Below are positions 534-45,870 of a DNA stretch of 64,000 nucleotides, piece by piece. The DNA is from an uncultured Candidatus Peribacteria bacterium (GTDB lineage Bacteria > Patescibacteriota > Gracilibacteria > RBG-16-42-10), in the NCBI GenBank assembly GCA_964514565.1, contig CAZERA010000001.1, positions 434,001-498,000 of the forward strand, read 5' to 3'. The notes beneath the pieces are model-generated. The model saw nothing but the letters and a program-made list of their open reading frames with translations, was not told where the DNA came from and ran no database searches. How positions within the stretch are numbered: position 1 is the stretch's first letter; the number at the start of each line of letters is the position of its first letter. The position numbers were made by a program, and so were the translations under genes.

Positions 534-3500
534 TTACTTGGTAAGCGCTAGGAGTTGTTTGCGGTAAACGAATGCGGCGCTAGCTAGGATACTGAGAGTG
601 AAGACTACCATCACACCGACTGGACCTGTAGTAGGTAATTCGACGAAGGCTACTGCGTAGGCACCTGTATCGAGAGTGGCTGTGTTGGGTGCTAGTGACA
701 CTGTCTTGCTACTAGCGTCTGGTTCTCCAGAAGCTGTGTAGGTAATCACTACGCGACCGTTGCCTGGAATAGTGAAGGTGAGACCTTCAGCATTACCGAT
801 AGTACCACTGCTATAGAGTGCACCGTCTACGCGGAGTGAGTCTGGATTGAAGCGTACGAGACCACCGCTTTGACCAGGCACTACACCGTTGTTGAGACCG
901 ATAGTATCCACTACACGATGAGTTTCTGCCTCAGCATTTGGATTGCTGATGACTATAGTATAGTTGGCAATCTCACCACGTTTTACTTTGCCAGGAGTAA
1001 CAGTCTTTTCAATACCGATTGGTTGCGCTGGAGGAGGAGGAATAACCATTCCTACCACTTGGACTGAAGCATCAGCTTCATCACGGATGTTGACGTTTGG
1101 AGTGTCATCACGGAGAGATGCAGTGTTGTCTACAGTGACGATGTCGCTACCAGTGAGTCCTGGAGCACTGACACGGACACGGTAAGTAATACGGATATCA
1201 TCATCTGCACCGACATCTTCACAAGTGATACCATCTGAGTCATTCATCTCACCACTACAGTCACCATCACCACTCACGCGGATCTTGGTGCTATTGCGGA
1301 CATAAGTGAATTTGACGCCCTTGTCTCCACTCAATGTACCATCATCATTGATATCATCAGTGATCAGTAAAGTAAGATTAGCAATCTCATCATTGGTACC
1401 TCTTGGTGAAACACGGATAGTATAAGTCACTTCGTCTCCATCATGTACCAATTGAGGTGAAGCATCCTTGCGGATACGGAAGTCAGTATGGAGTGTAGCT
1501 GTACCACGCACTTGCACTACAGCAGGATTGCTAACTGGAGCAGCATTGCTTGGAGTAGCGGTAGCTGTGTTGCGGTTATAGCCACTATCTGTGGTGCCAC
1601 TATTGGTACCAGTTGCACTATAGCTGAGTGTGGCACTTTGACCCGCCGCAAGATTGAATGTACGAGCAGCAAGATCAGCACCGAGATTGGTCACAGTACA
1701 AGGAGTAGCGATTACACAAGCCCCAGTAGGAGTAATCAAACGAATATTGCTTACATTGCTCACGTTTGGAAGACCACTGACTAATGTGTCACTGAGGACG
1801 ATATTAGTCACATCAACTGTGCTGGTATTGCGGACGGTAATCAAGTAATTGAGAGTAGTCCCATTGTTTACAACTACTGCACTAGCATCAGTATCAGCAG
1901 CTTGGCTGTTGACGTCTTTTGTAATAGTAATAGTAGGAGTGATTGGTGTAGTACCAGTGACAATGACAACTGCAGGATTAGTTACAGGACCTGTCTCAGT
2001 ACTAGTCACAGTCGCTGTATTGATGTTTGGAGTACTGTCAGTAGCAGTAGTATTGATACCTACAGCGTCATAACTAAGTGTAGCGCTTTGACCTGCGGCC
2101 AATGTGAAACTTTGCGCAGCAAGAGCTGAGCCAAGGTTGGCAATAGGACAAGGTGTAGCTGTGACACATGAACCAGTAGGAGTGATCAAACGAATGTTGC
2201 TCACGCTATTTACATTTGGTAAGCCAGCCAACATGTTGTCACTAATGTGTACATTGGTAAGAGTTACGCTGCCATTGGCTGAAGGCGCTCCCACAGTAAT
2301 CAAATAATGAAGAGCTGTGTTGTTTGGTACACGGACTGCATGTCCAGCATCATCAGCTGGTTGACCATTGACGTCTTTGGTAATAGTGACATTGACTGTA
2401 CCAGGACGATCAGAAGAGAAGGCGATATCACGGCTACCAGGTGTACAACCAGTAGTAGCAATTGGGAAACAAACATACACTTCGTTGCGATGGTAACCAG
2501 TACCAGTAGGACGAGTGCCGCTAGTAGGATTGACTAATACATTGTAATAGAAGGCGATAGTCTGACCAGCTCCGACTGAAGGAATAGTGAAACGGATAGC
2601 ATTAGTTGTGCTGCCGGCACCTACATAGGTGACACGACTGCTACCGGTGAGAGCAGTTTCATTTGAACCACTAACAGTATAAGTACCATCGAGCAAAGTA
2701 CCGTTGGCTAAAGTAGAACCAGCAGAGTCCACTACATTTTGAGCATTGATAACAGTGTCATTGCGAAGGAAGAATTGATCCTCTAGCGCGAGATTGTTTA
2801 GCGGAGCAGTGCCTGTATTGCTAACAGTAACACGGTAATAAGTAATATAAGGATTGTTTTGTGCACCAAAGTCTGCTGCGCTACCAGTAGTAGCAGTCTC
2901 ACCGTCTACAAATGAGCTTGGAATAGCAGCACCTGTACTTGGACGTACTGCAGTAGAAACATATTTCTTCACTGTAGGTGGTACTGGAGGTTGACTCATG
3001 ATATGAGCATCATCACAGAAGTTTTCAGTAGCACAGTTGGCAACAGTGACAGCATTGTCAGGAATACTAGGTACAGAAGTAAAACTACCTTCACCGAAGT
3101 TTTGATAGCTATAGCTAACTACTCTAGCACGATTGAAACTATTTTCAGCAGCAGTTTGGCTTGGAGCTGGCAAAGTAGCTTGGTAGCTAAAAAGTACTTC
3201 TTGTAATCTGCCATCAAATGGAGCAGAAATCGCTAATGGAGCCGTAATAGTTGATGCAGCTGCAATCGCTGTATTTGGGATTGTAACCAATGCACCGATT
3301 AAAGCTTGTGCTCCAGTATTGAAGCGTAAGTTGCCACCACTTGTTGATGATGTAACACGGAATGGATCACCAGCGCTATTTGAATTGAGTTGAATCGCTA
3401 CTGTTCTAGCTGGCGTTGTAGAATTGTCTTGTAATTTGAGGTAAGTAGTGACAGATCCGGCTACAAGTGTTGGAGTAGTGCGGGCTGCGGCATCATATGC

Positions 3501-5453
3501 TGTACGAGCTTTATAATAACTATCATCGACACTAATAGTAGATAAGAATGAAGTATCACTAGTACGAACAGCTTTTTGCAATTTTACTAAATAGTTGCCA
3601 GGGAAAGTAGTACTTGGCAGGGTGCCGTCAGCATTGAAACGAACTGCTTGTGCGCTCAAATCTGCATCTTGGTAGAGGCTGATGCTTGAACGATCTACAG
3701 CATTATTGGAAGCTAAATCTTGAAGCAAGTTGGCAGCAGTAGGAGCTTGGTTAGTAACGTATTTCTCAACATCTACAATAGGTGTAGGTAATACCTGACT
3801 AGCTAATATATAAGCAGGATCTTGTTGTGAAGGTAGGCCACAGAATGCAGTTTGTGCACAGCTTACGATTCTGGCATTGTTTCTATTATATACTGTGCCA
3901 GATACTGGATGAGGAATGACTGCATCATAGTAAAATACGATAGTTCTATGTGCTTGTAATCTAGGTAAGCTGAAATTGATATGATTACCGTCAGTATTAA
4001 CAAAATTAACTGTTTGTAGCGTTGTATCACCACTAGCTAATGGATCTTCACTGGTTGTTCCATTGGTGAAGAATGTCGGCAACGCAGCTGATGTCGTAAG
4101 CGGTGTAGTCGTGCCGTATTGTACAATCGCTGGAGCTTGGGCTGTAGATTCATTGCCTGGGAAAAATGTGTCGGAGATCACTAAGTTGGTCAGGTCGCTG
4201 TCGCTTTCGTTGCTCAATGTCACACGGTAATGAGCAGGGAAGTCAGTAGTACGTTGAGCGAAATCTACGGCTTGATCTGTGCTGTTGGCATCAAAGAATT
4301 GACCATTTATAGTTGATTGAGCTTGTGAACCTGTAGCACGAGTTGTTGTTGAAACAAACTTTTTAATTTGAGGTGCTGTTGCTGTTGGCTCAGGGATTAC
4401 GTTAGCTAAGAAAGTGAGGTAGCCAGAGTTTTGGAAACAACCAATAATAGTACCCTCAGGAGTGATTGTGATGCCGTTACCATTTTGAGTACTGGTTAAT
4501 GGCATACCTTTATTCAAGCCTGTACCAGTTGGATTGAAGAAACTATTAGCGCTACCTTCGCTGGTAGTGAGAGCTCTAGGCGCATTGAACTCTAATTCAT
4601 TGATACTAGGTATACGGGTTGATGTATGTTCAATAAATTGAAGTGAACTAACCTCTGGATCAAGCATGAAGCGGTTCTGAGTATCAGCAAAGTGACCACC
4701 ATTGGTAAGATGTACTACTACGTCATTGCTAATAGTCTTATCTGCTAAAGCCGTTTGGCTAGCAAATTGGTCATTGGCAAGGTTCATATTGTTATAATAT
4801 GAAACATTGTCTGCACTGATATAACCAGTCACTTTTGGTGATTGTTGGAAATCAGTAGGAATATTTACATAAACACGAGTGTTGTTTGCTTGTTGACCAA
4901 ATGCTGTACCAGTAGTTTCTGGTGGTTGACCGTCATTGTGGACATACAAATAGAAACGTACTTTGACGTTGGTATATGGAGTACCAGCAGTGGTGGTACC
5001 AGTAAGATTGTTCTTATTCAAGATCAAAGGATCTTGAGCATATTCAAGATCACGTGAGGTTGTACCATTTCCTGGGCCAATATTGTCATTGTCAGGAATA
5101 GCATTATCACCAATCTGTACATCAGGACGTGCAGATAAAAATTGTCTCTCGTCACCAATGACATCAGAGCTACGACGTACATCATCAAATGAATTGTCTC
5201 TCACCAAGATACGACGTCCTTCTAAGGTACGTAAATTCTCATAGTTATTGAATGTAGCAAATGGGAAAGCATAGTAGCTTACGTTGCCATTGCTAGCCAC
5301 AACAGGCTGTCTGCCTAGTCGATTGGGCAAAAAAGTTGATGTGTCACCAGCATTGGCCGAGGTAGACAGAAAAGTGGTCGGCATGACGGTTGATACCAAA
5401 ATACCAACAGCTAAAGCTAACGAGAGAAGTTTGTATGGTGAGGACTTGGACAT
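534..5453 (-). CDS. Large secreted surface protein with tandem DUF11/Cna-like Ig domains and a C-terminal LPXTG-type sorting signal
   Basis: N-terminal signal peptide (ending ...SANA); repeated IxK...Y(T/L/R)(I/V)T(V/L)xN...SD...NTA modules; C-terminus LPTTG + hydrophobic helix + YRKQ...K tail. Confidence 0.85.
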   Translation of the reverse strand: MSKSSPYKLLSLALAVGILVSTVMPTTFLSTSANAGDTSTFLPNRLGRQPVVASNGNVSYYAFPFATFNNYENLRTLEGRRILVRDNSFDDVRRSSDVIGDERQFLSARPDVQIGDNAIPDNDNIGPGNGTTSRDLEYAQDPLILNKNNLTGTTTAGTPYTNVKVRFYLYVHNDGQPPETTGTAFGQQANNTRVYVNIPTDFQQSPKVTGYISADNVSYYNNMNLANDQFASQTALADKTISNDVVVHLTNGGHFADTQNRFMLDPEVSSLQFIEHTSTRIPSINELEFNAPRALTTSEGSANSFFNPTGTGLNKGMPLTSTQNGNGITITPEGTIIGCFQNSGYLTFLANVIPEPTATAPQIKKFVSTTTRATGSQAQSTINGQFFDANSTDQAVDFAQRTTDFPAHYRVTLSNESDSDLTNLVISDTFFPGNESTAQAPAIVQYGTTTPLTTSAALPTFFTNGTTSEDPLASGDTTLQTVNFVNTDGNHINFSLPRLQAHRTIVFYYDAVIPHPVSGTVYNRNNARIVSCAQTAFCGLPSQQDPAYILASQVLPTPIVDVEKYVTNQAPTAANLLQDLASNNAVDRSSISLYQDADLSAQAVRFNADGTLPSTTFPGNYLVKLQKAVRTSDTSFLSTISVDDSYYKARTAYDAAARTTPTLVAGSVTTYLKLQDNSTTPARTVAIQLNSNSAGDPFRVTSSTSGGNLRFNTGAQALIGALVTIPNTAIAAASTITAPLAISAPFDGRLQEVLFSYQATLPAPSQTAAENSFNRARVVSYSYQNFGEGSFTSVPSIPDNAVTVANCATENFCDDAHIMSQPPVPPTVKKYVSTAVRPSTGAAIPSSFVDGETATTGSAADFGAQNNPYITYYRVTVSNTGTAPLNNLALEDQFFLRNDTVINAQNVVDSAGSTLANGTLLDGTYTVSGSNETALTGSSRVTYVGAGSTTNAIRFTIPSVGAGQTIAFYYNVLVNPTSGTRPTGTGYHRNEVYVCFPIATTGCTPGSRDIAFSSDRPGTVNVTITKDVNGQPADDAGHAVRVPNNTALHYLITVGAPSANGSVTLTNVHISDNMLAGLPNVNSVSNIRLITPTGSCVTATPCPIANLGSALAAQSFTLAAGQSATLSYDAVGINTTATDSTPNINTATVTSTETGPVTNPAVVIVTGTTPITPTITITKDVNSQAADTDASAVVVNNGTTLNYLITVRNTSTVDVTNIVLSDTLVSGLPNVSNVSNIRLITPTGACVIATPCTVTNLGADLAARTFNLAAGQSATLSYSATGTNSGTTDSGYNRNTATATPSNAAPVSNPAVVQVRGTATLHTDFRIRKDASPQLVHDGDEVTYTIRVSPRGTNDEIANLTLLITDDINDDGTLSGDKGVKFTYVRNSTKIRVSGDGDCSGEMNDSDGITCEDVGADDDIRITYRVRVSAPGLTGSDIVTVDNTASLRDDTPNVNIRDEADASVQVVGMVIPPPPAQPIGIEKTVTPGKVKRGEIANYTIVISNPNAEAETHRVVDTIGLNNGVVPGQSGGLVRFNPDSLRVDGALYSSGTIGNAEGLTFTIPGNGRVVITYTASGEPDASSKTVSLAPNTATLDTGAYAVAFVELPTTGPVGVMVVFTLSILASAAFVYRKQLLALTK

Positions 5454-37157: not shown

Positions 37158-37853
37158 TTAGGGTGATATTACAATTCCTTTGTAAGCGAAGAACTTTTTG
37201 AATTGTTTGTTGCTTAGAGCAACATTACTTTGGTTTTTAGTAGTCCCTCCACTTGGGTTGTGGAAATACAGTGTTTTTGTTTTTTTGTTGTAACCAAATA
37301 GTAGGATTAAGTGACCACCTTTACTGGTTGGTGTGCTATCTGGATCACGAATGGCTGGATTTACCGAGGCGATTACGTAACCTCCCTGGCCAATAGTATT
37401 GATTATCTCTGTAATAGTAAGGGCTGTGACTGGTCTTGCTTGAAGCTGGTATTCTGCCGCGACAAAAGTACAGAAAGGTTTGTAAAAGAGACCGGGTGAA
37501 TCTTGGAGTGGTTCTTGATAGCCACCATAACTTAAACATTGTTTGGCTAGTGTCACTAAAGGCACCTTTAGTGCCTGTTTGTGTTGCAGCAACATTTTTA
37601 AACAAGCCATGCCACATGCATTCCAACTCCATAGTTCGTATTCTGCTGGTGTCACAGCACCAGAGTTTTGCCAAAGAGGATCAGCAGAAGCAAGTATTTT
37701 ACCTGTCAGTATCGCACTAGTCAGCTCAGGTGATTCCCACTGACTATAGTAAGGAACATCTTGATGACTAAAACTCTCAGGAATTTTCTTATTCACAAAA
37801 AACCACTTGAGGTACTGAACCAACAAGAGTGCTTTTTGTTTGAGTAAAACCAT
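37158..37853 (-). CDS. Peptidase C39-like (papain-fold) protein
   Basis: VPYYSQW, ACGMACLKM (Cys), GGHLILLFG (His), YFHNP. Confidence 0.8.
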   Translation of the reverse strand: MVLLKQKALLLVQYLKWFFVNKKIPESFSHQDVPYYSQWESPELTSAILTGKILASADPLWQNSGAVTPAEYELWSWNACGMACLKMLLQHKQALKVPLVTLAKQCLSYGGYQEPLQDSPGLFYKPFCTFVAAEYQLQARPVTALTITEIINTIGQGGYVIASVNPAIRDPDSTPTSKGGHLILLFGYNKKTKTLYFHNPSGGTTKNQSNVALSNKQFKKFFAYKGIVISP

Positions 37854-37962: not shown

Positions 37963-39870
37963 CTAACTTTTTTTACCAGACTTTCTTTTCTTCTCCAATC
38001 CAAACCCTTCAAGCCTATCGCTCAAAGTAGTGTAAACATCATCTTCGTGTTCATCAGCATTGATACTGATCAACTTACCCATTTTCTCGTAGAGAGAAAC
38101 AATTGGTGCTGTCTCTTGATAGTAGTTGCTAAGGCGAAGCTTCATGCCGACGATATTGTCTTCTTTGACTAGTTTGAGATCATTGTCACACTTCTCACAA
38201 GTTTCAGCGATGGAGTCAGCTGAATAAACTGATTGGCAATAACTACAAATCTTTTTCTTGGTGATACGAGTGAGGGCATGATCGTCACCGACATTGAACA
38301 GTACAGCCACAAAATTACGTTTGTACTGACTAATCAAGCGGTTGAAGAAGTCTGCTTGGGCGAGGTTCTTGGGGAAACCGTCAAAAATAATTGGTTTCTC
38401 AGTGCTGACATTTTTGATGAAAGCCTCGACGATTTGTTGCAAGATATCGCTAGGCACTACTTGTCCTGCTGTCAGGAGTTGTTTTACTTTGCGACCAAGC
38501 TGATTGTCTTGTTTCATGGTTTTCTGAAGCTCGTAGTGGAGATCAAAAATAGCCATGTCGTAGATCTTGGTCAGCTTCATCGCTTGGCAAGTCTTGCCAG
38601 AGCCTGGAGGACCAAAGAATACTAAATCAGGGAAATAGTTGAAGCTCATGCTGCTAGCCAAGAAATTGATATCGTTGTCTTGGGCTTGTTCAGCTTTACT
38701 GAGATTGATACGCACGCTATCTGGATGCTCGCGTAGTTTGACCAGAGCTTTGGCTTCGATCTGACGAATACGTTCACGGGTGACACCAAATTCTTGACCT
38801 ACTTCTTCCAAAGTGTGTCCGATACCATCATCCAAACCGAAACGCATACGGATGATTTTTTGTTCACGTGGAGTCAGAGAATCAAGCAGTCTATGCACAT
38901 CTTCCTTGAGCAATTGGCGAGCAGCTTGAGAAGATGGACTGAGGGTCACATCATCTTCAATAAAGTCACCAAGCTTACCAGAATTGTCACCATCAGAACC
39001 GACTGGTGCTTCTAGAGAGACGATATCTTGAGAGATTTTCTTGATATACCGAATCTTCTTCACATCCATATCCATTTCAGAAGCAATTTCTTCGATCAAT
39101 GGTTCACGACCCAGCTCTTGTACAAGGCGACGTTGGGTATGCGTAAATTTGTTGATTGTCTCCACCATGTGCACAGGAATACGAATGGTACGAGCTTGAT
39201 CAGCAATCGCGCGTGTAATTGCCTGACGAATCCACCAAGTAGCATAGGTAGAGAATTTGAAACCTTTGCGGTAATCAAATTTTTCTACAGCACGAAACAA
39301 ACCGATATTACCCTCTTGAATTAAATCCAAAAGCGAAAGTCCACGACCAACATATTTTTTAGCGATACTAACTACCAAACGAAGATTAGCTTCAGCCAAT
39401 TGACGCTTGGCCACTGGATCATTTTTGGTGATGCGTTTGGCGAGCATTACTTCTTCTTCAGCATTGAGTAGTTCAACACGACCTATTTCACGTAGATACA
39501 TGCGGATAGAGTCTCCGGCTATGTCACCGAGGGCGAAGTTCTTTTTGTTGGTAGAAAGAAATTTATCTCGTAGTTTTTCTTCTGAAGTTTTTAGAGTAGG
39601 ATTAGCTTTTTCTTTTTCTTTGGCAACAGTTTTTTGTTGGTTTTGCCAAATGAATTCTTGTTGAGAGTCAACGATTTCAATACCGTGTTCTAGAAACTGT
39701 ACCATCACATCTTCTACTACGCCCAGATTACTTTCGAATTCTGGGATAGCATGCATGACTTCTTGTTGAGTCACGAATCCTTGCTCTTTACCTTTCTTGA
39801 TTAATAAGCGCACCTCTGGGCTATACTTTGCCAACGAATCTTGTTCGCGTTTGATACTTTTTTTTCCCAC
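37963..39870 (-). CDS. rpoD: Primary sigma factor RpoD fused to a C-terminal adenylate-kinase-like domain
   Basis: Region 1.1-like N-terminus, [58 protein letters not shown]; then [12 protein letters not shown] and a CxxC...CxxC lid; follows dnaG. Confidence 0.95.
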
Positions 39871-39880
39871 TAGGCTGATG

Positions 39881-41626
39881 TTAAGTATGTAGCTGTAGTA
39901 TACGAGCGGTGGCAGCTAAAATTTGTTGTTCTTCTAGTTTGTTTCCTTCGACTCTGGCTTTTTTCAATGCTCCTTGCAAGTTACGAATAGCTTCTTGTTT
40001 AAGATGGTCTTTGAGACGCTGGAAAAGCTTGGTTTTCTCAGCTAGTAGACGTTCTTGATCGTAGTCTTGACACTGTTCTTCGGTGCGAAGTAGTTGGAGA
40101 GAAAATTGATCTGAAGAGATCTGAGGTGGGAATTGACTAGTAAGTAAGCTGATATCGCTTGATACTCGTGGGGCACTATAGTACTCATATCCGTTTCTGT
40201 AAATGTCTCGAAAATCGGCAGGAAGAAGTTCTATGAGCCCTGGATCCTGGAGTGCGTCGATGAATTGGGGATAGAGTACACAGAAAGCCAGACTGACTAG
40301 CAATAAATCAGTTTGGGCTGAGCTCGGAATGGTCGGTAGGGTACGTTCGACATGGTGGGACTGGAGGGTCTTATAAATCAGCGTTTCACTCTTGTGTAGA
40401 ATATCTGCTAGTTTTTTGACATAAATATCTTGATCTAGCGGGTGAGCTAGGCGTTTGACCAGTGGAATAGTCACTTTCAAAACATCCTTTTGATCTTCGA
40501 TAAAGTTGAGATCTTTATCAGCAAAAAATGCCAACATAATATAATCAAACCAATCCAAGTGTTTTTCAATCTGCTGCATATAGAGAGCAGGATCTTGTTT
40601 GATCACAGAATCGGGATCTTGGCCTTCTCCCAAAAGGACAAAACGGGCTTGCGTTTCAGGTAAAGCGACCAGATCAGGCATAATACGTAGCGCTGCATTC
40701 TTGCCGGCTTGATCACCGTCAAAAATAAAGATAAGTGTATCTGCTTGGCGACGTAATATTTCTAAATGGCGAGGTGTAAAAGCAGTACCAGAGACTGCTA
40801 CTGTATTTAGTATGCCGGCTTGCACACTAGTAAGACAATCAACCTGGCCTTCAACAATATGTACTCGTCTAGCGGCTTTGATGCTGGACTTGGCTTGGTA
40901 TAAACCGTAAATGAACGAGCTTTTGTGAAACAAGACTGTCTCAGGAGAGTTGAGATACTTTGGTTGATTTTCATTGGTGAGGGCTCGCCCAGTGAAACCA
41001 ATCACATCGCCTCGATCACCATAAAAAGGGAAAATAATGCGGTCACGAAATTTGTCATGGCCACTTGCTTCTTTGTCACCTTGAATACTGACACCGGCCG
41101 CTAATTGCTCAGCCAGTGAGAAGCCGGATTTGAGGAGATGATCATGCAATAACTGCCAGCTATCAGGTGCATAACCTAAGCCGAACTGAGCGATGATACT
41201 CGCGCTAATGTTTCTTTGGTTGAGATAAGCTTGTGCTGTAGTAGCTGTAGCTGTTTGTTTCTGAAAAAAGCTTTGAGCTTCTCTGAGCAGTGCCCGCAGT
41301 TTTTCTTTTTCATCTTTCTGGGCTGAACTGTAAGCAGCTGATTTTTGATCAATGCTTAGTCCCACCCGGTCCGCCAAATCATGAATAGCTTCCCCAAAGT
41401 CTACCTTCTCAACTGTCATGTAGAACTTAAAAATGTCCCCCCCTTGATGGCAGCCAAAACAATAAGCAATGCCCTTGTCTGGACTAACCATGAAGGATGG
41501 TGTCTTTTCTTGATGAAATGGGCAAAGACCTTTGTAATTGCGACCAGAACGTTTGAGCGTCACATAGTCTTTGACCAAATCTTCAATACTGAGCCGGGAT
41601 TTTATTTCTACGACGGGGTCTAGCAT
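39881..41626 (-). CDS. dnaG: DNA primase
   Basis: [11 protein letters not shown]...CFGC zinc finger, [31 protein letters not shown]. Confidence 0.97.
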
Positions 41627-45107: not shown

Positions 45108-45371
45108 ATGTTTTTTCTCTATATTATTCAAAGTGGTCGGACCAAACGATTTTATATCGGAGTCACTACGAATCTTGCAAATCGTATCAAACAACATAAT
45201 AATGGCCACACAAAATCTACTAGAGCCTATCGGCCATGGATTTTGATTTATACTGAAACCTTTCTAGATAAAGGCTCAGCATACAAAAGAGAATATTACC
45301 TCAAGCATCCTAAGGGGTATCTAGAAAAGAAAGATATTGTACAAAAATATCAGCATGGAGGGATCGCATAG
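45108..45371 (+). CDS. Small GIY-YIG nuclease
   Basis: FLYII...FYIGVT.NL.NRI.QHN.G..KST..YRPW.LIY.E...AYKRE..LK; last 15 nt overlap the tRNA-Ser 5' end. Confidence 0.92.
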   Translation: MFFLYIIQSGRTKRFYIGVTTNLANRIKQHNNGHTKSTRAYRPWILIYTETFLDKGSAYKREYYLKHPKGYLEKKDIVQKYQHGGIA

Positions 45372-45446
45372 TGGTCTAGTGCACACGCTTGGAAAGCGTG
45401 CAGCCTCGCAAGGGGCTCGAGAGTTCAAATCTCTCTCCCTCCGCCA
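45357..45446 (+). tRNA. tRNA-Ser (GGA)
   Basis: Acceptor stem GGAGGGA/TCCCTCC, anticodon arm CACGC-TTGGAAA-GCGTG, long variable arm, G discriminator, CCA. Confidence 0.97.
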
Positions 45447-45563
45447 CCTATTCACTTTGCTCAGGGTAGGTCCAATAGAGTAGCTAAAAAAACAATAGTT
45501 TCGTATTACCCATGAGAAAACCAATAGTAATTTTCAAGGTTCATTGTTGACGAACAAAGTAAA

Positions 45564-45659
45564 GGTCTAGCCCCGAAGGGTCCCCTTCGGGTTGCACACG
45601 CTTGGAAAGCGTGCAGTCTCGCAAGGGACTCGAGAGTTCAAATCTCTCTCCCTCCGCCA
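45564..45659 (+). pseudogene. 5'-truncated tRNA-Ser copy with a 22-nt hairpin inserted in the D arm
   Basis: GGTCTAG-[CCCCGAAGGGTCCCCTTCGGGT]-TGCACACG...CCGCCA; no 5' acceptor strand. Confidence 0.85.
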
Positions 45660-45774
45660 CCCATTCGCTTCGTTCAGGGTAGATTCAATAGAGTAACTAA
45701 AGGACAATAGTTTCGTACTACCTACGCGAAAACCAACAGTAATTTTCAAGGTTCATTGTTAAGAACAAAGTAAA

Positions 45775-45870
45775 GGTCTAGCCCCGAAGGGGACCCTTCG
45801 GGTTGCACACGCTTGGAAAGCGTGCAGCCTCGCAAGGGGCTCGAGAGTTCAAATCTCTCTCCCTCCGCCA
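45775..45870 (+). pseudogene. Second 5'-truncated tRNA-Ser copy with hairpin insertion
   Basis: GGTCTAG-[CCCCGAAGGGGACCCTTCGGGT]-TGCACACG...CCGCCA. Confidence 0.85.

Follow-up and report, generated by a model that had tools for sequence, protein, structure and literature searches.

A conserved adenylate-kinase-like domain fused to the only primary sigma factor found in an uncultured bacterium's genome: a putative nucleotide-binding module on region 4

The stretch of DNA analyzed here (the window) comprises 64,000 nucleotides of an uncultured Candidatus Peribacteria bacterium (assembly GCA_964514565.1, contig CAZERA010000001.1, positions 434,001 to 498,000 of the forward strand). It carries an rpoD gene whose product, a primary sigma factor, continues into an adenylate kinase (Adk)-like domain, hereafter the ADK-like domain. 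According to the list of open reading frames (ORFs), the gene is one uninterrupted ORF of 635 amino acids (aa) with a GTG start and no internal stop. The protein consists of sigma regions 1.1 to 4, a 31-residue linker, a long-form zinc-lid adenylate-kinase fold and a short basic tail (Table 1). A sequence-only reading of this DNA had described a complete RpoD in the dnaG-rpoD position that runs in frame through a short linker into an Adk fold, with a GPPGSGKT P-loop and a CSYC...CEKC lid. Our analysis bears this out: the five Sigma-70 Pfam families all match in order and above their own cut-offs, the upstream DnaG is confirmed by Pfam, and both motifs are present in the single ORF.

The Pfam ADK match (PF00406) covers residues 419-598 (E 1.2e-26, 94.1 bits vs a cut-off of 26.8). 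Among the NCBIfam models, the RpoD C-terminal model TIGR02393 (RpoD_Cterm) is passed (362.6 vs 354). The full-length RpoD equivalog models fall under their cut-offs (NF004208, 493 vs 555; NF006666, 480 vs 572), and so do the adk models TIGR01351 (129.5 vs 168) and NF001380 (129.4 vs 251). The basic tail carries a net charge of +2 to +5 across 7 orthologs.

Table 1. Features of the fused gene and its upstream neighbor (window coordinates; residues numbered in the fused protein)
Feature	Coordinates	Strand	Evidence
Whole fused gene, 635 aa + stop	37963..39870	-	ORF list; Pfam and NCBIfam; 11 orthologous clusters; 7 genomes
Sigma-70 region 1.1, residues 16-87	39610..39825	-	PF03979, E 1.4e-13
Sigma-70 region 1.2, residues 120-151	39418..39513	-	PF00140; sole region 1.2 match in genome
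Sigma-70 region 2, residues 158-228	39187..39399	-	PF04542, E 3.4e-24
Sigma-70 region 3, residues 237-313	38932..39162	-	PF04539, E 1.4e-20
Sigma-70 region 4, residues 328-381	38728..38889	-	PF04545, E 2.7e-19
Linker, residues 385-415	38626..38718	-	Alignments; pLDDT 60-68 (low confidence)
ADK-like domain, residues 416-621: CORE, NMP-binding and Zn-LID parts, catalytic residues substituted	38008..38625	-	PF00406; PDB Adks; AF2; Foldseek; alignment columns
P-loop GPPGSGKTC, residues 420-428; Gly/Lys invariant, G14 to T, T15 to C/S/T	38587..38613	-	Alignment, DNA
LID Cys4 zinc knuckle C542, C545, C558, C561; KKK (residues 538-540) ahead, replacing G-R-R	38188..38247	-	Alignments
Basic C-terminal tail, residues 622-635, net charge +5	37966..38007	-	Charge count; low model confidence
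dnaG (primase), immediate upstream neighbor in the classical dnaG-rpoD order, 10-base gap	39881..41626	-	Pfam Zn_ribbon_DnaG, DNAG_N, Toprim, DnaB_bind

The host genome is CPR-type (candidate phyla radiation) and counts 1,117,677 bases in 7 contigs. At 92.7% completeness, it holds exactly one match to the region 1.2 family PF00140, which is the fused gene, and three further sigma-like frames of merely 193-222 aa. The fusion is the only primary (group-1, housekeeping) sigma found in this genome. The sequence-only reading had allowed that the fused domain might be the genome's only Adk. This is ruled out by a second ADK-family gene of 238 aa (locus L001, 1366..2082, minus strand), located directly after secY (2222..3532, minus strand) on the same contig, which has a canonical GSGKGT P-loop and all the catalytic arginines. 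It shares 32% identity with the fused domain over 212 residues, without a gap. A separate adk with all five arginines is present in each of the 9 genomes sampled from the order.

Eight of these 9 genomes belong to one family (f1). The fused form is present in 7 of the 9, all from f1 and from three genera, as open frames of 626-650 aa; a TAA flagged in one ortholog is the natural stop of an intact 624-aa ORF. In the eighth f1 genome (85% complete, 180 contigs) rpoD is missing from the assembly, which brings the count to 7/7 where rpoD was found. Relatives within the family carry the fusion, not a separate rpoD and ADK-like gene. In the protein database, sigma and ADK domains are combined in 11 clusters of 627-634 aa, drawn from NCBI, JGI, ENA and Logan and labeled by their sources as Candidatus Abawacabacteria or Gracilibacteria. 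They are annotated as RpoD only or, for one cluster (UniRef), as "Multifunctional fusion protein".

When the ADK part was scored against proteins of 349-1112 aa, just the same 11 clusters emerged among 915 candidates. In 1.84 billion representatives, an exhaustive HMMER search brought up a single close relative (88% identical), itself fused, with all the rest at 34% or less; no free-standing form of the ADK-like domain was seen in this search. Among the 109 other RpoD-like proteins listed, 108 measure 388-446 aa and the remaining P0012 (595 aa) ends in a Lys-rich tail instead. On this evidence, the fusion is probably confined to one lineage, and the architecture is fixed in one family, labeled Candidatus Abawacabacteria by the sources.

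Public sequencing runs were searched as well, and those found held at most 0.30 of the sampled words. Contigs from four of the public runs are short and mostly from 90-95% relatives, and no indels are listed in them. None of the listed pieces (X2, 38223-38636 and 38667-39142; X3, 38647-39055) crosses the linker (38626-38718) from end to end. The reads therefore neither verify nor contradict the junction, and the case for the fusion rests on independent assemblies. The same in-frame junction, with no stop or frameshift, recurs in 7 of them and in the 11 clusters, and the linker is conserved as protein while synonymous sites are saturated. The fusion is not an assembly artifact. We also considered an internal start giving a free ADK-like protein and rejected it, because the DNA has no Shine-Dalgarno (SD)-like motif ahead of the internal Met410 and this residue is a Leu in genus g3.

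A contig of 251 bases from a wastewater metatranscriptome library agrees with the sigma part (39440-39690) at every base. It hints, weakly, that the organism or a strain very close to it was present there, and perhaps this transcript as well; DNA carry-over is possible.

To describe the ADK-like domain, we used an alignment (A3) that sets the linker and ADK-like part of the window beside 8 fusion orthologs and beside 63 Adks, made up of the closest single-domain representatives and the genome's own adk. The AlphaFold2 (AF2) model of residues 386-635 built on A3 reaches a mean pLDDT of 89.7 and a pTM of 0.82, with lower values in the linker (Table 1) and over the last ten residues (65). It shows the CORE, nucleoside monophosphate (NMP)-binding and LID parts of the adenylate-kinase fold. 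The top Foldseek matches listed for this model (ranks 1-50) are adenylate kinases throughout; target-normalised TM scores are 0.72-0.84 for the first 13, and the best are zinc-LID enzymes including 5g3y, 1zin and 1p3j (TM 0.79-0.84). With these Bacillus-type long-form enzymes the fused domain has in common its fold, the order of its subdomains (phmmer E 5.7e-28 to 1.2e-23 over about 205 residues), the P-loop Gly and Lys, D84, Q92, R119, R167 and the Cys4 LID. It differs from them by several fixed substitutions, by its scores under the NCBIfam adk cut-offs and by its covalent attachment to a sigma factor. The full-length model, built on a 14-row alignment (A1), is too poor for domain packing (pLDDT 59.5, pTM 0.33).

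Residues are numbered below as in E. coli Adk (PMC8297476) and were placed on alignment columns. Invariant in 9/9 fusions are G7, G10, G12, K13, G56, D84, Q92, R119, R167 and the four LID cysteines, in agreement with the earlier statement that the P-loop Lys and the R167 equivalent are kept. Among them, the P-loop residues, D84, R119 and R167 belong to the ATP side. Four further positions that are nearly or fully uniform in the 63 Adks are changed in every fusion: R36 to Q (R in 60/63), R123 to K (R in 63/63), R156 to V or I (R in 63/63) and G32 to H, P or Q (G in 62/63). To these we add D158 to E (D in 63/63) and G14 to T (G in 61/63), both fixed in 9/9 fusions and absent from the sequence-only list. 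Position 15 is C, S or T (T in 60/63 Adks), which turns GKGT into GKT(C/S/T). R88 is K in 5/9 fusions and R in 4/9 (R in 62/63 Adks). Of the five catalytic arginines, R167 alone is kept in all the fusions; it is present in 63/63 ordinary Adks. The AMP pocket also carries a T31L change, and the LID has exchanged 4 Arg for 6 Lys. The substitutions listed by the sequence-only reading (R36 to Q, R88 to K, GRR to KKK, R156 to V) were thus reproduced against B. subtilis Adk 1p3j, the genome's own adk and the 63 Adks, except that R88 is not fixed, since 3/7 family genomes retain the Arg.

In the accessible part of the work on E. coli Adk (PMC8297476), the mutants R88A, R123A, R156K and R167A each have <1% activity and R36A has 17%. 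The KM for ATP reported there for these mutants is 52-120 uM. As activity falls to <1-17% at such KM values, single Arg losses appear to cut catalysis more than ATP binding. Inactivity of the domain is nevertheless only probable, as Lys stands in for Arg at position 123 and R88 is still Arg in part of the family. Taken together, the changes should cripple phosphoryl transfer much more than ATP binding.

We then compared the 7 genomic copies in all 21 pairs. Synonymous sites are saturated throughout (pS 0.6-0.9). For dN, the ADK-like part gives 0.03-0.21, sigma regions 1.2-4 give 0.007-0.056 and region 1.1 gives 0.045-0.16. Across the same pairs of genomes, identity is 71-96% for the fused domain and 49-84% for the free adk, the fused one being higher in 21/21. 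By subdomain, identity in the fused domain vs the free adk is 76 vs 78% in CORE-1, 78 vs 61% in the NMP-binding part, 82 vs 57% in CORE-2, 79 vs 62% in the LID and 80 vs 67% in CORE-3. The fused domain is under strong purifying selection and evolves more slowly than the genome's real adk.

In trees, a long stem of 1.2-1.5 substitutions per site leads to the fused clade, whose inner branches are very short, the pattern expected from a burst of change at recruitment and tight constraint afterwards. The clade lies inside a group with the order's own adks (SH-aLRT 96) and is weakly sister (SH-aLRT 82) to P0141/P0221, where P0141 is the Adk of another Abawacabacteria metagenome-assembled genome. 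Grouping the fused domains with the adks of the family itself gives a slightly better tree, which the AU test does not reject (p-AU 0.60). The nearest free relatives of the domain in the trees are Abawacabacteria Adks. An adk of this group is therefore its probable source, with several candidates for the exact donor.

From these observations, we propose that the fused domain serves as a nucleotide-binding module with little or no catalytic activity, placed where region 4 ends on its C-terminal side, a reading to which we would give an even chance. Several features in combination suggest it: the single polypeptide is conserved, it is the sole primary sigma found, its Adk fold keeps the ATP-side site while catalytic residues are replaced, a real adk exists elsewhere in the genome, and constraint is strong. 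The domain is probably no longer an efficient AMP:ATP phosphotransferase and probably still binds an adenine nucleotide, most likely ATP or ADP. In the holoenzyme structure, the C-terminal end of region 4 is the meeting place of the -35 DNA, the beta-flap and class II activators. The ADK-like domain would act as an on-board ligand-binding module attached to the end of region 4, which grips the -35 element and the beta-flap. Its LID and NMP lobes could then close or open depending on nucleotide and so alter the packing of the domain against sigma, RNA polymerase (RNAP) or upstream DNA. This in turn might match initiation by the housekeeping holoenzyme to the cell's nucleotide state, as with fused C-terminal sensors of some extracytoplasmic function (ECF) sigmas. 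In its most specific form, the housekeeping sigma would itself be a metabolite sensor: the crippled Adk on region 4 would bind ATP/ADP and the closing of its lid would switch the contact of region 4 with the -35 element, the beta-flap or the emerging 5' end of the RNA. We put this forward tentatively, as a possibility with the balance tilted against it.

Several points weigh against a nucleotide-binding, sensing role. Sigma regions 1.2-4 have only 5 lineage-specific positions (119, 275, 293, 316 and 331), so there is no clear co-adapted docking surface. R123 and R156 also contact the gamma-phosphate of ATP, and with several changes combined the affinity for ATP may be below what the single mutants lead one to expect. 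Folding needs might account for part of the P-loop's invariance. The AMP pocket is remodeled (T31L, variable G32, R36Q), which makes true "energy charge" (AMP) sensing, as the sequence-only reading had imagined it, doubtful; as the AMP site is the most remodeled part, AMP sensing is the least likely form. A Lys-rich tail found at the same place in a sister family, described below, hints at a role of the extension other than ligand sensing. Lastly, RelA/SpoT and Ndk homologs are encoded in the genome, leaving no obvious regulatory gap for the domain to fill, and the domain would therefore not be the genome's only nucleotide-linked control.

Two functions that the extension might have taken over were considered and rejected. 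It is not a stand-in for a missing (p)ppGpp system, as RelA/SpoT is present, nor for a missing C-terminal domain (CTD) of RNAP alpha, as alpha retains its CTD in this genome.

The closest working precedent, by analogy, lies in the ECF sigmas. According to the accessible part of PMC8999054, the C-terminal extensions of ECF41, ECF238 and ECF42 are built-in sensors that touch sigma2/sigma4, and both the conformation of sigma and its activity change with the ligand or partner. The likeness to our case is a conserved folded domain after region 4 that is clade-wide (here 7/7 family genomes with rpoD); a P-loop nucleotide kinase fold is not among the extensions named in that part of PMC8999054. Those proteins are group-4 sigmas, with sigma2 and sigma4 only and small regulons, whereas the carrier here is a housekeeping sigma with regions 1.1-4. 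The presence of regions 1.1, 1.2 and 3 places the fused sigma outside the ECF group. NrdR, a small nucleotide-sensing module on a regulator, offers a functional analogy. So does the ATP-cone of ribonucleotide reductases (PMC11226230), which binds nucleotides and thereby governs how active its carrier protein is. Both differ from the ADK-like domain in having an unrelated fold and no attachment to a sigma, and in that their binding is demonstrated while that of the fused domain is putative.

The alternative that survives best is a nucleotide-independent structural module, serving as a spacer, as a tether or as a surface for contacts with upstream DNA, RNAP (the beta-flap/exit-channel area) or another protein, with the nucleotide site as a relic. 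It is suggested by the sister family f2, whose RpoD (G001, locus L023, 1501..3327, plus strand) is a 608-aa protein with a low-complexity Lys-rich tail of about 235 aa after region 4. Together with P0012, this gives tails of about 220-235 aa inserted at exactly the position of the ADK-like domain, and the first 12 or so linker residues are common to the fusion and both Lys-tailed forms. The basic tail found in all 7 orthologs, the 6 Lys for 4 Arg in the LID and the conservation of the whole surface, not of the active site alone, go in the same direction. However, the folded ADK-like domain has a net charge of -3 to 0, similar to the free adk, and would be a poor non-specific DNA binder. A relic site would have no need of the invariant G7, G10, G12, K13, D84, Q92, R119 and R167, and since the alpha CTD is present there is no lost upstream-DNA contact to replace. 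We consider this explanation doubtful, while granting it an appreciable share of the probability. That the sister family's tail is itself a decayed ADK domain was rejected, as the two show no similarity (E 11); the Lys-rich extensions have no Pfam domain.

A second alternative keeps the domain as an enzyme, within a bifunctional protein that would serve beside RNAP as a slow or re-specialised (d)NMP kinase or ATPase, for instance in local nucleotide recycling. Its Pfam ADK score far above the cut-off would fit, as would the charge kept by Lys at 123 and 88, the Arg still found at 88 in 3/7 genomes, and an NMP-binding lobe more conserved than that of the free adk. The G14 to T change even yields the classical Walker-A GK(T), whose Thr binds Mg in other P-loop NTPases. 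Against this stand R156 as V/I, R36 as Q and D158 as E in 9/9 fusions, when in E. coli Adk R156K alone leaves <1% activity (PMC8297476, accessible part), as well as NCBIfam adk scores (129.5 vs cut-offs of 168 and 251) and a canonical adk kept in every genome. An enzyme of this kind is unlikely.

A redox or zinc switch, in which the Cys4 LID would act like a zinc-containing anti-sigma domain and release or inhibit sigma upon oxidation, is in our view very improbable. All 9 fusions keep the four cysteines, and conservation of the LID is high, but the same cysteines are found in 54-61 of the 63 ordinary Adks, including the free adk of the same genome, hence they are inherited structural zinc ligands. 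Finally, the idea that two adjacent genes were joined by a sequencing or assembly error, or that an internal start gives a second product, draws on the linker left unspanned by the contig pieces and is practically negligible given the junctions, the saturated synonymous sites, the indel-free contigs and the Met410 data reported above.

Primary sigmas are among the most conserved bacterial proteins and are usually regulated externally, by anti-sigmas, by (p)ppGpp/DksA acting on RNAP or by sigma competition. On-board sensor domains in ECF sigmas and pseudoenzymes recruited as regulators are known already. We found no publication on a sigma-adenylate kinase fusion in the literature searched, where most subscription journals were outside reach; within the same literature, a housekeeping sigma with a conserved, catalytically degenerate Adk is not described and no built-in sensor domain on a housekeeping sigma is known. 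The finding is limited to one small uncultivated family and the function is putative. Still, a former metabolic enzyme has been retained through the whole history of this family within its only primary sigma, evolving more slowly than the real enzyme yet without the catalytic arginines. This makes it a clear case in which a probable pseudoenzyme has become part of the core machinery of transcription. For very small cells that are probably symbiotic and have few regulators, it offers a testable case of global transcription being coupled directly to nucleotide status. If the coupling is true, the adenine-nucleotide pool would directly set global transcription initiation, with no separate regulator in between, and no primary sigma is known to be controlled in this way. 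The protein looks soluble and is of moderate length, and in vitro tests are feasible without cultivating the organism.

Lys-rich RpoD extensions recur in the class, at either end of the protein. In a TGA-recoding relative (G078, genetic code 25; locus L039, 2601..4460, minus strand), the 619-aa primary sigma has a Lys-rich N-terminal extension of about 200 aa.

In the ESM Atlas, we observed a 740-aa cluster of 55 members from Absconditibacteriota that joins sigma-70 to TsaE, another P-loop ATPase (score 0.82). A sigma-70 + TsaE fusion was not found in the genomes and proteins that we sampled. None of the 150 TsaE matches listed from 201 class genomes lies in a real sigma-sized frame, and the one long TsaE frame (G132) is a spurious read-through that we discarded. 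Sigma region 2 is far from TsaE in 5/5 code-25 genomes, TsaE is missing at the 3/3 primary-sigma loci inspected, and the fusion is absent from 5 f12 genomes. On long RpoD-like proteins, TsaE or ADK was found in 0/120 of those listed. In several class families, TsaE occurs in open frames of about 340-440 aa, not about 150 aa (e.g., G086:C1:66376-66738 and G077:C41:21860-22240), which suggests that TsaE is fused to another domain there.

Five single-member RpoD-like clusters (P0274, P0325, P0330, P0345 and P0360) are joined to DnaG, RnfC-like or flavoprotein domains. With one contig each, these look like gene-calling or assembly joins rather than conserved fusions.

In the window, the gene downstream of the fusion (37158-37853, minus strand) belongs to the Peptidase_C39_2 family (E 3.5e-15) and also has a short Guanylate_cyc_2 match (29.6 vs a cut-off of 28.1 bits). 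It is not kept beside the fusion in the relative G003. Further along, at 45357-45870 (plus strand), ARAGORN finds three tandem tRNA-Ser(GGA) genes, of which the first alone reaches the Rfam tRNA threshold. Copies 2 and 3 equal copy 1 from the anticodon stem to the CCA end, bar two base changes in copy 2. In both, the D-arm is swapped for a segment, shorter by 5 bases, with complementarity to their own 5' end, and no cloverleaf is folded. They are either D-arm-less tRNA-like elements or decayed duplicates.

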